Below, one piece after another: positions 43,501-49,500 of a stretch of 64,000 nucleotides of DNA; position 1 is the stretch's first letter, and each line of letters starts with the position of its first letter. The stretch covers positions 17,052,001-17,116,000 of the forward strand of contig NC_087250.1 of assembly GCF_037042905.1 (NCBI RefSeq), given 5' to 3'. The DNA comes from Lytechinus pictus (lineage: Eukaryota). The notes under the pieces were generated by a model that was not told the DNA's origin, did no database searches, and saw nothing but the letters and a program-made list of their open reading frames with translations. The translations under genes were made by a program, and so were the position numbers.

Positions 43501-46500
43501 AAATGTATTAAAGATGTAAGAAAGGGTGTAAAAGAAAAGATATTTGCATTAACAGTCAATGTGAGGACTTGTAGGAAAGTGTTGAATGTGGGAAGACGTG
43601 TAAAGAATCGAAATGTGTACATGTACTTGCGTTCAATGTGAGGACTTGCGGGAAAGTGATGAATGTATTGCAGATGTAGAAAGCAGTGTCAAAAATAGAC
43701 ATGCATTACGTCAAACCCCCGTTTGGAGAAAGACCGCAGTTCAGATTGCAAACTGCGGTGTTATACCCCATTTTCCATTTGGGATCTCCCAAAAATCATT
43801 TCCAAGCCCTTATCAACCGCGCTTGGCCAGGTAATCCAGGGGTAATCCCCGCTGTCTCAATTTCACCTCCACAGGCCAGTATATGAGCGTTGAGCAAAGG
43901 ACGAAAAGATAAATAACAGCTTTGCTATTACGTAAGACTTCTCTGCCTGTAGTAGGACCTTCGGAATGAAATTATTGTATTTGATATTTAATCACGTTTT
44001 CAAAGGCATATTGTATTCAGTAATCCAATGTTAGTCAATTTTCAATTTCGAACGAAGAAAATTGACCTCGAAATAACGAAAGTAAGCGAATAAAATTGAC
44101 GGCATGCTTTGCAGCTAGGGACCGCACTCAGCGCTGCACATGCATCCCATCATGTGTGGCCCCCTGCTGTGACTGTATATATGCCGGGCTGTTGTGTTAT
44201 CTTCGGACCGACGTCAAGAAACAGGTGTTTTGATACTTAAATTGCTTGCTTGGGGCAGTTAGGGTTTGTCGTACTTGGAGAAGAGAATTGATGAAAAGGG
44301 AAACTGGGGTAAAGTGTTCTCAAATGGAAGTTTTCTGTCATGTGTACATCTAGTGATTTTGCGTAGCCGGACCAAGCATTATGGAGATCGGGCTTTTAGC
44401 CATGTAGCCCCAGTTATGTGGAATAGACTCCCAAGCACTTTCAGGAATTTGAACAATCTAAAGACATAGTCTGCTGGGCAAACCCTTCACTCGAGTCAAG
44501 GGTCTGAATGTGCAGCCTACTCATGCCTTGTGTACTGAAGGCCCTCTCGTTCAGCAAGTTTTGTATGTGCTAGTATTTGCGTGGAGGCACACTTGTTGAT
44601 CAAAGTTCCAATCAGGGTTTGTGCCTGCAGACTACTAAAGACATTCCAATCAAGAGTCAAACATTACCTTTTTACACAAGCATACTAGAGTACTTATTTT
44701 TCCCTTACATATATATATAATTGATATATATATATACATATATATGAATGTTAAGTTTGATGATTATGATATTGATGATTTCCAATGTTTTTGTTTATTT
44801 GATATGTAGCGCCTGGAGTAATGATTCATTTGAAAGTGCCCATTAGAAATAATTATTATCATATATCATTATGTACTGACAGTCAATGTGAGGACTTGCA
44901 GGAAATTGATGAATGTATTACGGATGTAGGAAGCAGTTTATAAGAGAAGAGATGTGTACTTACAGTCAATGTGAGGACTAGCAGGAAAGTGATGAATGTA
45001 GATGTAGGAAGAAGTGTAGAAGAATAGAAATGTGTACTTACAGTCAATGTGAGGACTAGCAGGAAAGTGATGAATGTAGATGTAGGAAGAAGTGTAAAAG
45101 AATAGAAATGTGTACTTACAGTCAATGTGAGGACTTGCAGGAAAGTGATGAATGTATTACAGATGTAGGAAGCAGTATAAAAGAGAAGCGAAGCCAGGAA
45201 CCAGTAACCAAAACAGATCCCGACTGATGACCCCATCAAAGTCCCTTCTTTCTGTAAAAAATTAACAAAAAAGATATTGTTAATCCACAGCTTTGTGGAC
45301 AGATACATATCACAGTGTGAACAGATACATACCACAGTGTGAATATATCCATACCACAGTATGAATAGAAACATACCACAGAGTGAACAGATATATACCA
45401 CAGTGAGTGTGAATATGTTCATACCACAGTGTGATCAGATACAGACAACAGTGTGAATAGATACATACCACAGAGTGAACAGATACATACCACAGAGTGA
45501 ACAGATACATACCACAGTGAGTGTGAATATGTTCATACCACAGTGTGATTGATACAGACAACAGTGTGAATAGATCCATACCACAGTATGGATAGATACA
45601 TACCACAGTGTGAATAGATACATACCACAGTGTAAATAGATACATACCACATTGTGAATAGATACATACCACATTGTGAATAGATACATTGTGAAAAGAT
45701 CCATACCACAGTATGGATAGATAAATACCACAGTGTGAATAGATACATACCACAGTATGAATAGATGCATATCACAGTGTGAAAAGATACATACGACAGT
45801 GTGAATAGATACATACCACAATGTGAATAGAAACATACCACAGAGTGAACAGATACATACCACAGTGAGTGTGAATATGTTCATACCACAGTGTGATCAG
45901 ATACAGACAATAGTGTGAATAGATCCATACCACAGTATGGATAGATACATACCAGTGTGAATAGATAAATACCACAATATGAATAGATCTATGCATATCA
46001 CAGTGTGAAAAGATACATACCACAGTGTAAATAGATACATAATAATAATAATAATAATAAAAAACAGTTCTTGTATAGCGCATATCACAATTATGAATAA
46101 TGTCTCTATGCGCTTCCAATAGATACATACATTGTGAATAGATCCATACCACAGTATGGATAGAAAAATACCACAGTGTGAATAGATACATACCACAGTA
46201 TGAATAGATGCATATCACAGTGTGAAAAGATACATACCAGTGTGAATAGATACATACCAGTGTGAATAGATACTTACCACATTGTGAATAGATGCATACC
46301 ACAGTGTGAATAGATACATGATACCACATTGTAAATAGATACATACCACATTGTGCATAGATACATACCAGTGTGAATAGATACATACCATATTGTGAAT
46401 AGATACATACCAAAGTTTGAACAGATACATACCAAAGTGTGAACAGATACATATCACAGTGGGAATAGATACATACCACAGTAAGTATGAAGAGATATAT

Positions 46501-49500
46501 ATTCCACAGTGTGAACAGATACATATCACATCGTGAACAGATACATACAACCGCGTGAATAGATACAAACCAAAGTGTGAATAGATATATACTAAAGTGT
46601 GATTAGATTTCACAGTGTGCACTAAACAAGATACATACTACAGTGTGAATAGATACCAAAGTGTGTCTAGAGTCTTTCATTCCATAGAGTAATGCAGCTA
46701 TCAGAGACACACACACAGCTATACATACCACAGTGTGAACAGATACATGTACATACTACAGTGTGAATAGATACATATCACAGTGCGAATAGATACATAC
46801 CACAGTGTGTCCGGAGTCTTTCATTCCATAGAGTAAGACAGCTATCAGTGTGAAAACTACCATAAGAGGGCCATACAGTTCACCAACTACTTTCTGCAAA
46901 AAAAAATAATGATAAAAACAATAAAGAGTTTGAATTATTACATCCAAAATCATCTTACTTTTATGTAGGACAATTCAGGCAATCTAAAATACACTAATAA
47001 TATAACGTACACTATGTATTCTTTCCTGGGAAATTGTTGGTCCTGAAAAGAACACCCGAACTCAAAGTTTTGACAAGTGTGCTACGATCGTCTTCAAAAG
47101 CAACAAGATAAAACAGTCACTACGATATTAAAAGCTGGAAAATATATTACTTGGACGCTCTGCATATACTGTATGTTTTAAGTGGTGCAAAACTTACTAG
47201 AGCTTGATTCTAAGAAAATCCCACAATACTCAGGAAGAAATTGTTCTAATATCTAGAATGATGACAGATTCACCTTACCTGTGGATTCCCAGTTAGCTTC
47301 CTTGGAACGAACGAAAATAGTAGCCTGCAAATTGGCAACAAAGAAAAGAAATTGTGAAATTTTCATGAACATTAGATCAATGATGTTGTTTTTACTATCA
47401 TTATGATATTAATTATAAATACTATCACTGATATTATCATGATCATCATCACAATCATTATTATCATAGCTAGTATTATAGTATTTGCATTAATTATTAT
47501 TATTCCTACTAACATCATCATGACCATGATTAGCTTATGAGTACAGCATCAGGGAAGGTATTTCCTGAAAGAGGGCTGATTTTAATTCTGCATGCCAAAA
47601 TGACACTTTTTGCATTCAACAATTTTGATATGCTACAGTATGTAATAGCCCATTGTTACAGGCTCTTGGCCCTATTACCTTGCTACTACAACCTTGGGTT
47701 CAACATCAAAGTATGGTCGGAGGATATCTATGTTGCCATAAATGTCAAACGCCTTCCGGGCTTGCTGACGACTAGCTTGCCAGACCTGGATCAGGTCATT
47801 AATAAGAGGGGCGAGAGGAGATCGAGAAAAGGGGAGAGAGAGAGAGATGAGAGTAATGGGAAGGGGTGCGGAAGGGAGAGAAGAGGGAGGTGAGAAAGAG
47901 AGAGGATGAAAAGAACGAGGGATCAAGACAGAAGGTGGGAGAGATTTAATGACAGAGATGAAGAGAATGGGTATGGATGGGGAGAGGAGAGAAAGGGGAG
48001 GCAAGGAGGGAACAAGACATAAGGGGGAGGGGAAAAGAGAGAAAGAGAGGAACACATTTTGTCATTATAACAACGTACAAGAATTTCACATAATTGACAA
48101 AACACGAACTAGTAAACCTAAATAATAAATCAACTCAGTTTAAAAAATTTGAATTTGGAAAGGCTTTGTGCAGGTTTTTGCACAAATTAGGTATCAACAC
48201 AAATTGAGGCACATATAGAACCGAGTCCAGTCTTAAATTTTGCTTTTTAGATTCAAATAGCATCTTACACCTGGAAGGCATTTTGTATTCTAAAAAATGT
48301 CTACTTCACTGCATTAAAAATATGAAACAGAACAAAATCTATAGTGTGACATGTTCCAAAGATATTTATAATTATTTTTTCCTACATGTTGTATACATAG
48401 CATGAACAAGTATGGAATGGCATTTCTTTCCAAATTTTAATCCATGACAATCGGAAGTAGGAAATGATTGTATGGTGTATTTCTTCTCTTTTTTGTGACA
48501 AAGCCAATAACTGATTTAAATTTTTCAGAGGAACATACAAAAATAAGCAGAATGTCAGCCTGAGAGTTTCAGTTGTTATTTGTTATATTTGAATGTGAGT
48601 AAATTCCTTATTTAAGTTATATTCTATCATTTCTTTAAACATCATAAATAGAATTTGATAGCTCACAGAGATTAGTTCCATCTTTAGCATGTTTGTTTAA
48701 CGTCAATAGAAGACATGATTGAGTTACTTTATGGGGTGGAACAAGAAATTAAGACAATTATACCGAATCTGCCATCTGGCTCTTCATTGCATCCATGAAG
48801 GTTGCTTCCGACGGCTTTGCTGATTGGCTATCTCCGTGCTGATCAGCTTCACCATTGGTCAGTTCGGGTGGTTGCTGTACCAACGAGGGCGTGGCTTCAT
48901 TATCCTTCTCAAGGTAATTGGCATCAGAGAGATCAATCACAGCTGATGCGTTCTGTAGAAGAAAAAACATTTTAAAGACTTTCTGCAAAAGGTGATTGGT
49001 TGATATATATTCACTTAAAAAATTATTCACTAAAAATAATGACATATTTTCATTAACAACCCTCATAACCATCGCAAAAATGCTTGACATGATGAGGACG
49101 GTCAAGGTGATGATGACGATGATCATTTCAATGACAATGTGTGTAATTATAACAATAAAAACTTGAAAACTTGAAACATAAACAGTGTTCTATCGAGACC
49201 CATTTTAGTGGTGGTCACGATTTTTTTTTTTAGGCTGAGTTGGCAGTCTTTAAGCCATGAGTGAAGGAACATCAATGTAATAACTATCTGACATTAATTT
49301 GCAAATCTTTGTAAATGAACAAATAAAACAAGATTAAAGATAGAAATGAATGCAGGTCAATTTCCTCTTTTCGAATAGTTCATTTTATACACTTTCCATT
49401 TGGAATTAGTGGTGGACGGGAGCAGTGTTTTTCAGGATGAATGGTGGTCAGAAATCTTCGGTGCCGGTTGGGCCCGACCACTGCCATCCACTGTAGCGAT

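Follow-up and report, generated by a model that had tools for sequence, protein, structure and literature searches.

A minisatellite of splice-donor copies in intron 5 of sea urchin YIPF3, probably tolerated rather than used

The YIPF3 locus

The window, meaning the whole 64-kb stretch of Lytechinus pictus DNA that was analysed, carries on its minus strand a nine-exon YIPF3 gene with a coding span of 37428..51353 (exons at 51353-51315, 48952-48764, 47785-47679, 47324-47279, 46893-46801, 45251-45120, 42973-42854, 41683-41560 and 37579-37428). The model protein is identical at 333/333 residues to the L. pictus record P0007 (XP_054757622.2) and at 322/333 to P0006, and comparison with named YIPF3 proteins identified the gene as a YIPF3 ortholog across all exons. 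Pfam scans of six single exons found no Yip family, and one below-cutoff match from a single-exon scan, to Romo1, was rejected.

Exon 5 (46801..46893, 93 nt) and exon 6 (45120..45251, 132 nt), both on the minus strand, are each of phase 0/0. The former is colinear with urchin homologs and is joined to exon 4 by 30 spliced reads, and the latter shows 100% amino-acid identity with L. pictus YIPF3-like. Junctions 5/6 and 6/7 are free of insertions in all 13 annotated urchin proteins. The last 9 nt of exon 5, which supply the exon-side part of the repeat unit described below, encode His-Thr-Val, and because these residues are kept in L. variegatus and in 3/3 Diadema records, the junction is older than the array.

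An intron filled with copies of its own donor

Some 61 degenerate copies of the 22-nt junction between exon 5 and intron 5 take up 97% of YIPF3 intron 5. The source unit spans the authentic donor (46788..46809, minus strand, with its GT at 46800-46799) and is the only full 22-letter match in the window. Tandem Repeats Finder, a check that the original prediction had proposed, recovered a main array on the minus strand at 45294-46608 (period 22, 59.5 copies, 75% matches), interrupted by an ATT-rich stretch near 46030-46116, and a further block of 3.8 copies at 46721-46809. A search of the 64 kb for the unit with at most three mismatches returned 44 matches, all within 45298-46809, and none of 100 shuffled sequences gave any match. 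Segmentation yielded 68 segments, six of which were dropped from the copy statistics at a threshold of at least 16/22 matches; the remaining 62 are the authentic unit and 61 copies, the latter comprising 49 distinct variants. Stretches of 72, 65 and 54 nt, the first being the longest, recur exactly within the array, offset by 443, 348 and 462, and blastn printed no internal blocks of at least 80 nt at 90% identity. These block duplications, together with indels relative to a contig from a related organism (organism B), record past turnover. The unit originated at the boundary of exon 5 and intron 5; its amplification involved block duplications and was followed by decay.

The splice signal is kept in many copies, though not in every one. 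GT is retained in 51/61, G/GTATGT (slash, exon-intron boundary) in 25, GTG/GTATGT in 18, and the identical 11-mer from -3 to +8 in 16. Beyond the array, intron 5 ends in 42 nt of unique sequence (45252..45293, minus strand) that include a TTAAC at 45283, which we take as the putative branch point from its likeness to the consensus, a T-rich tract and the acceptor AG. Two short, distant matches to acceptor 5 (27469 and 30501) were dismissed as chance similarities of T-rich sequence. The original prediction had equated the unit with the junction, put its number on the order of 60, noted many copies with GTG/GTATGT and placed the array's end about 45 nt from the exon 6 acceptor, and each of these descriptions is borne out by the counts above.

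Its account of the exon-proximal region is equally accurate. Three proximal copies lie at 46717..46787 (minus strand), and the nearest of them has lost its GT through a G-to-A change at +1 (GTG/ATATGT, position 46778), leaving 46728 as the nearest intact donor identical to that of exon 5. Read-through from exon 5 meets an in-frame stop at codon 15 (TAG, 46758-46756), and the expectation that downstream copies would truncate the product holds for every other GT in the intron (165/165 lead to a premature stop). The predicted partial duplicate of exon 5, placed at about 46661-46704, extends over 56 nt (46649..46704, minus strand; 89% identical by blastn) and joins the final 48 nt of exon 5 to 8 nt of intron. 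The copies are plausible donors: five match U1 better than the authentic donor does, and intron 5 contains 26 sites with a U1 match of at least 8/11, or 16.8 per kb, where the remaining seven introns have 0-2.6 per kb.

The related organism is represented by one low-depth contig, which shows the same proximal layout. The proximal copies and the partial exon 5 duplicate are present in it. In the nearest copy, the organism B contig retains the GT that has been lost in the window, and it carries intact donors at +22 and +47.

Transcripts from the authentic donor

RNA reads were taken from three runs of one study, about 6% of each run being read. Loose ends at 46801, the authentic donor, were found in 28 reads (8+10+10), and their consensus is the start of exon 6 (its first 30 nt), showing that the first donor is used in steady-state RNA. 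Agreement among loose ends was 0.92 in X22, a value compatible with roughly one read in ten being discordant. Depth was 0 in all five bins over 46601-46800, the first 200 bases of the intron and the site of the three proximal copies, in 3/3 runs; no use of a downstream-unit donor was thus seen over this interval, at a low depth and in transcripts where decay may hide such use. From 28 reads, the 95% bound on downstream-donor use is about 10% of steady-state RNA, and the corresponding bound before decay is 25-53% if decay destroys two-thirds to nine-tenths of such transcripts. Within these bounds, normal splicing at donor 5 is undisturbed. Intron retention is weakly tested, because the same libraries hold almost no unspliced RNA at other donors either. 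Reads at 47007-47081, which fall on both strands and run on into unlike sequence, were taken as a dispersed repeat and left out of the counts.

Decay of the donor core

The donor core has decayed no more slowly than the other positions of the unit (0.128 versus 0.099 mismatches per site). Among the 61 copies, the +1 G is changed in 9, the +5 G in 8 and the +6 T in 12; the +2 T is changed in only one. Only 1 of the 25 G/GTATGT copies falls within the first 300 nt (p=0.045, for a cut chosen post hoc and copies that are not independent), and this scarcity of intact near decoys is a hint of selection against them. Given the post hoc cut and the intact near donors of organism B, selection is not claimed. 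When the aligned units were compared by Fisher tests, proximal and distal units did not differ significantly, either in intact donors (2/11 versus 25/50, p=0.09, one proximal unit being probably mis-aligned as intact) or in the share of core mismatches (p=0.15).

Relation to known donor-spanning repeats

The intron 5 array belongs to a known kind of element, exemplified by the mirage minisatellites of amphioxus and the intron 7 VNTR of human F7: it is a head-to-tail repeat with a unit of minisatellite size, its first unit sits on an authentic exon-intron boundary fixed by homologs and spliced reads, and its copies are intronic. As described in the available portions of two reports (PMC3087553, PMC3902484), amphioxus mirages occur in the globin genes BflGb6 and BflGb9, Adh3, troponin C and PGBD5, and leave splicing undisturbed. 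The urchin array shares with them intronic tandem copies of the boundary that keep the splice signal in many but not all cases, undisturbed normal splicing, a marine invertebrate deuterostome host and array edges more diverged than the interior, and its 22-nt unit falls within the 10-72 bp cited there for the Adh3 mirages. It differs in its echinoderm host, in having about 60 copies as opposed to the 3-6 of amphioxus globin haplotypes and, judged against the cases those portions describe, in affecting two consecutive donors of one gene. Length instability is a further feature of amphioxus mirages; for the urchin array, block duplications and indels against organism B attest to past turnover.

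The available text of Borensztajn et al. (2006, PMC1557585) reports that only the most upstream donor of the 37-bp F7 VNTR is used, and the original prediction's notion of a natural test of donor choice, which is sound, is therefore not new. In F7, as in the urchin, the first unit spans the donor and the downstream donors are identical to it, some with better U1 matches. F7 has 5-9 near-identical, polymorphic units, proven functional by mutation; the ~61 degenerate urchin copies are putative donors recognized by sequence. According to the same text, IFI6 (6-16), CBS intron 13, LMNB2 and PDGF intron 4 have donors reiterated 10-25 times in the following intron, with only the first used in LMNB2 and PDGF, as in F7, and two extra sites also used in 6-16 and CBS. 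The urchin gene, with no extra donor seen in 28 reads, resembles LMNB2 and PDGF rather than 6-16 and CBS. The 25-bp VNTR of ABCA7 intron 18 is polymorphic in length, with reported effects on splicing and disease (PMC5954066, in part), and in it, as in IFI6 and CBS, some splicing takes place at the next unit (PMC1557585, PMC5954066). Its units are similar in size to the urchin's and use of the next one leads to a premature stop in both (in ABCA7 by frameshift), but each ABCA7 unit is described as carrying a GT, which the nearest urchin copy lacks. Two further partly available papers (PMC2812944, PMC10078293) provide general context only. No echinoderm mirage or YIPF3 case was listed in searches of the open-access literature.

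A tolerated passenger or a regulatory element

We regard the array, with high confidence, as a donor-spanning ('mirage') minisatellite that is tolerated and not used. It would have begun as a local tandem duplication spanning the end of the exon, whose extra copy fell on the intron side and left the coding sequence intact; slippage and unequal crossing-over may then have expanded the 22-nt core. A spliceosome committed, as in human F7, to the most upstream donor that defines the 93-nt exon would leave the copies silent. In rare mis-spliced products the premature stop would fall at least four junctions before the end, a position from which the established workings of nonsense-mediated decay predict their removal. 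Selection would neither maintain the decoys nor purge them efficiently.

The original prediction had offered instead a tunable control or a U1 sink, and neither is supported by the reads or by the rate of core decay. In the former, an ABCA7-like rheostat of unproductive splicing, some of the transcripts would be spliced from a downstream donor and degraded by nonsense-mediated decay, YIPF3 output being set by the array's length or by the condition of its nearest copies. The universal premature stops, the density of U1 matches and the different state of the nearest copy in organism B would suit such a device, as would the one-unit retention and length effect on splicing reported in the available part of the ABCA7 paper (PMC5954066). 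Nevertheless, no read enters the intron in any of the three runs, the donor core is not unusually conserved, and identical and even stronger downstream donors are reported not to compete in F7 (PMC1557585, in part), which together make a rheostat improbable. Still less credible is that uncut copies bind U1 snRNP and in doing so shield the transcript, delay the excision of intron 5 or titrate U1. The many intact G/GTATGT motifs, the GT kept in most copies and the near-invariant +2 T are in its favor, but +1, +5 and +6 have each changed in several copies, the core is no better kept than its flanks, and no signal of retained intron 5 appears in the 200 nt examined. U1 snRNP is abundant, moreover, and one modestly expressed gene would be a small sink.

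Two further possibilities concern the array's origin rather than its function. That its length is an assembly artefact is very unlikely given the number of distinct variants, the shortness of the longest exact internal repeat and the matching layout of the independent organism B contig. That an unrelated minisatellite family landed at the junction, or resembles it by chance, is extremely unlikely, because within the 64 kb the unit is confined to this locus, a 56-nt copy with 48 nt of exon 5 lies inside the array, and the unit's exonic part is coding sequence that Diadema has kept as well. The array is most likely a tolerated passenger, neither U1 sink nor rheostat. It is one of the larger examples of its kind. 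As a single locus it matters little, repeating in an echinoderm the lesson of F7 and amphioxus: the first donor prevails, even over dozens of copies that equal or surpass it.

A second array at donor 6

The donor of exon 6 has also been amplified, an array that the original prediction missed. It consists of 3.6 copies of a 78-nt unit (44872..45156, minus strand; Tandem Repeats Finder and sequence), and its copy donors at 45041 and 44963 carry the same 11-mer as authentic donor 6. Splicing at either would keep the reading frame open, without a stop (+26 and +52 amino acids), and could not be hidden by decay, which makes intron 6 a cleaner test of donor choice than intron 5, and in a host species suited to embryo experiments.

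Local echoes are found at 2/16 YIPF3 junctions. With the first array taken as given, one of the other two would also be of this kind by chance with a probability of about 0.11, and a bias of repeats toward junctions was accordingly not established from YIPF3 alone. It is a speculative and rather doubtful idea that splice junctions in this urchin seed tandem duplications through splicing- or transcription-coupled mutation, with mirages forming a genome-wide class of which YIPF3, with two consecutive amplified donors, is one instance. Were it true, the in-frame, stop-free donors of intron 6 would represent incipient exon extensions, and arrays of 22-nt units such as that of intron 5 could be latent dosage switches linked to decay. 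Whether junctions attract tandem duplication in these genomes and feed intron or exon gain is the wider question of real interest. Farther into intron 6, at 1.4-1.6 kb, the end of exon 6 and its donor recur in three further copies, which are decayed (43461..43693, minus strand; 81-89% identity by blastn).

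YIPF3 gene model and structure of the intron 5 array

The YIPF3 locus consists of nine exons on the minus strand, and the 333-residue model protein shares 333/333 residues with the L. pictus record P0007 (XP_054757622.2) and 322/333 with the L. variegatus record P0006, which makes L. pictus the most likely source of the window. With exon 6 alone as query, three sea urchin YIPF3 proteins were retrieved; their clusters comprise 13 named records, drawn from Lytechinus pictus, L. variegatus, Strongylocentrotus purpuratus, and two species of Diadema. Exon 5 (46893-46801, minus strand) and exon 6 (45251-45120, minus strand) both have phase 0 junctions, and the alignment shows no insertion at junctions 5/6 and 6/7 in 13/13 of the urchin proteins. 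An older L. pictus record, P0002, lacks one residue immediately ahead of the repeat unit, where exon 5 ends (~46807-46815), and differs from the window's protein at six further positions; it represents either a different allele or an error in an older assembly. L. pictus, L. variegatus, and S. purpuratus each have annotated isoforms of 288 and 285 residues, and near 36946 (minus strand) lies a candidate alternative last exon that would encode the short C-terminal end of the 288-residue form.

The original prediction, that the 22-nt junction unit repeats to fill intron 5, was borne out. Tandem Repeats Finder (TRF) places 59.5 copies of the 22-nt period, with 75% matches, at 45294-46608 and calls a second, short array at 46721-46809; the array occupies 1507/1549 nt of the intron, with 42 nt of unique sequence before the exon 6 acceptor. 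All 44 unit matches with at most 3 mismatches in the 64-kb window fall within 45298-46809, and none was found at this threshold in 100 shuffled sequences. Wrap-around alignment gave 68 segments, of which 6 below 16/22 matches were dropped, so that 62 remain, the authentic unit and 61 copies. Many copies keep GTG|GTATGT (18), as had been expected; the identical -3..+8 motif is kept in 16, and G|GTATGT in 25. At 46030-46116 the array is broken by ~85 nt that match the unit poorly and contain an ATT microsatellite.

Origin and age of the array

The array derives from the junction, and not vice versa. The nine exonic bases of the unit encode His-Thr-Val, which is kept in L. variegatus and in 3/3 Diadema records (S. 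purpuratus has His-Ile-Val), and among the first units is a 56-nt copy carrying 48 nt of exon 5, which confirms the partial exon duplicate proposed near the array start. This conservation and the exon-bearing copy argue against chance resemblance of a minisatellite to the junction, the least credible of the explanations considered. The unit has been amplified and has decayed, as the 61 copies comprise 49 distinct variants, and stretches of 72, 65, and 54 nt recur exactly within the array at offsets of 350-460 nt. These features fit block duplication followed by decay, as judged from sequence, and argue against an assembly artefact, an explanation scarcely more credible than chance resemblance.

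In a contig set from a related organism (organism B), compared over 46601-47800, one 167-nt contig (depth 4.1) covers 46649-46821 with 14 substitutions and 11 gap letters relative to the window. Its sequence, approximated from the differences listed (10/14 substitutions), has the window's layout, partial exon copy included, and carries donors identical to the authentic one at 22 and 47 nt downstream. Given the shared layout and intact near donors, the proximal copies are probably older than the divergence of organism B from organism A, the source of the RNA runs, and loss of GT in the nearest copy would not be required, on the evidence of a single low-depth contig that may hold errors and could stem either from DNA or from unspliced RNA.

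Donor strength and donor use

Scored as matches out of 11 to a U1-complementary consensus, the authentic exon 5 donor reaches 8/11; 26 other intron 5 sites score at least 8/11 and 5 score 9, a density of sites at or above 8/11 of 16.8/kb versus 0-2.6/kb in the seven other introns. The copy nearest exon 5 has indeed lost its GT, and the in-frame TAG said to follow it is codon 15 of the intron 5 read-through. Truncation upon use of downstream copies, likewise predicted, is upheld by the sequence, since 165/165 other GTs of the intron run into a stop codon before exon 7 ends.

Organism A, whose older runs contain a share of sequence words (0.11) close to the fraction of the window taken up by exons, is inferred to be the window's species. 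Three of its raw RNA runs, all from one study and used at ~6% of each run, supplied reads over 46601-47800, a region that spans exons 3-5 plus the opening 200 nt of intron 5. Because any downstream-donor transcript must cross these 200 nt, the region bounds all array donors together. Exon-mapped first mates had plus-strand orientation, as expected for minus-strand RNA from a stranded library, and spliced reads support joints 3-4 (23) and 4-5 (30) as modelled. Among the loose ends listed, beyond which lie 16 more, 8, 10, and 10 reads in the three runs break off at 46801, with a consensus equal to the opening 30 nt of exon 6 (one letter off in run X23), and depth was 0 over 46601-46800 in all five bins of 3/3 runs. 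Steady-state RNA thus uses the first donor, with downstream-donor use at most 10% (0/28 reads; one-sided 95% bound), at a low depth and with a loose-end agreement in run X22 (0.92) that allows ~1 discordant read in 10. Decay of stop-bearing transcripts could conceal downstream-donor use of up to 25-53%, if it is assumed to lower their level by a factor of 3 to 10. The other YIPF3 donors are likewise without read-through reads, so these libraries contain little unspliced YIPF3 RNA. Elsewhere in the region, 21/21 covering reads differ from the window at 47729 and 12/32 at 47309, both changes falling on third codon positions and, by hand reading, synonymous, and at 47007-47081 in intron 4 many reads and contigs, on both strands, continue unlike the window, probably from a fragment of an abundant dispersed repeat.

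Mechanism and comparison with known systems

The array is very probably a tolerated donor-spanning minisatellite whose copies are silent. Duplication across the exon end would have placed a spare copy in the intron with the protein intact, ordinary minisatellite turnover would have expanded it, and commitment of splicing to the most upstream donor would keep downstream copies silent, with decay removing rare mis-spliced products. A decay-linked control in which array donors tune YIPF3 output is improbable, given the zero depth over the first 200 nt of the intron in every run. A role of the copies as a U1 sink is more improbable still, as selection on the donor motif left no sign in the 61 copies: mismatch is 0.128 in the donor core (positions -1, +1, +2, +3, +5, +6) versus 0.099 at other unit positions, or 0.139 versus 0.106 on distinct variants only. 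Against this, +2 T is altered in just 1/61 copies, and only 1/25 G|GTATGT copies falls in the initial 300 nt (post hoc p=0.045, with non-independent copies), but aligned-unit tests did not reach significance (p=0.09, 0.15). In mirages, as tandem exon-intron boundary copies were named in amphioxus, the edges of the array are reported to escape homogenisation (PMC3087553), which explains a decayed edge without selection.

The array is a real and large but ordinary case of a known kind of repeat. Its anatomy is that of the human F7 intron 7 VNTR, in which the most upstream donor alone is used, and, according to the introduction of the same paper, two extra donor sites are used in the 6-16 and CBS arrays and the first donor alone in those of LMNB2 and PDGF (PMC1557585). 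The ABCA7 VNTR is described as having a length effect (PMC5954066), and the amphioxus mirages as leaving splicing undisturbed (PMC3087553, PMC3902484). The intron 5 array shows four of the five defining mirage features; on the fifth, length instability, block duplications inside the array and indels relative to organism B point to past turnover. Visible use of downstream units, the hallmark of splicing-active VNTRs, is not seen in the three RNA runs. A literature search, with most subscription papers outside its coverage, found no echinoderm mirage. A genome-wide seeding of tandem duplications by splice junctions in this urchin goes beyond what one locus can show and is doubtful.

A second amplified donor and other tandem repeats

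The donor following that of exon 5 is amplified as well, a feature overlooked in the original prediction. A 78-nt unit comprising the exon 6 end and donor forms a TRF-called array at 44872-45156 (minus strand), and three decayed, displaced copies lie at 43461-43693 (minus strand) in intron 6. Local echoes occur at donors 5 and 6 only, of 16 YIPF3 junctions, and a second amplified donor given the first is within chance (~0.11). The donors at 45041 and 44963 share an identical 11-mer with the authentic one, are in frame and stop-free, and would add 26 or 52 residues if used; no such extended isoform is among the 13 annotated urchin YIPF3 records. The intron 6 array thereby offers a test of donor choice that decay cannot mask.

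TRF called further arrays in the window. One at 31968-32777 has ~9 units of 87-90 nt. A 15-nt array occurs twice in opposite orientation ~2.3 kb apart (5596-5899 and 8150-8480), and a 16/42-nt family occupies two distant sites (8529-8724 and 55744-56282); both resemble the ends of mobile elements that carry repeats. One set of small tandem repeats is present at 58151-58628 and again at 60762-61237, ~2.6 kb apart, which suggests a local segmental duplication.
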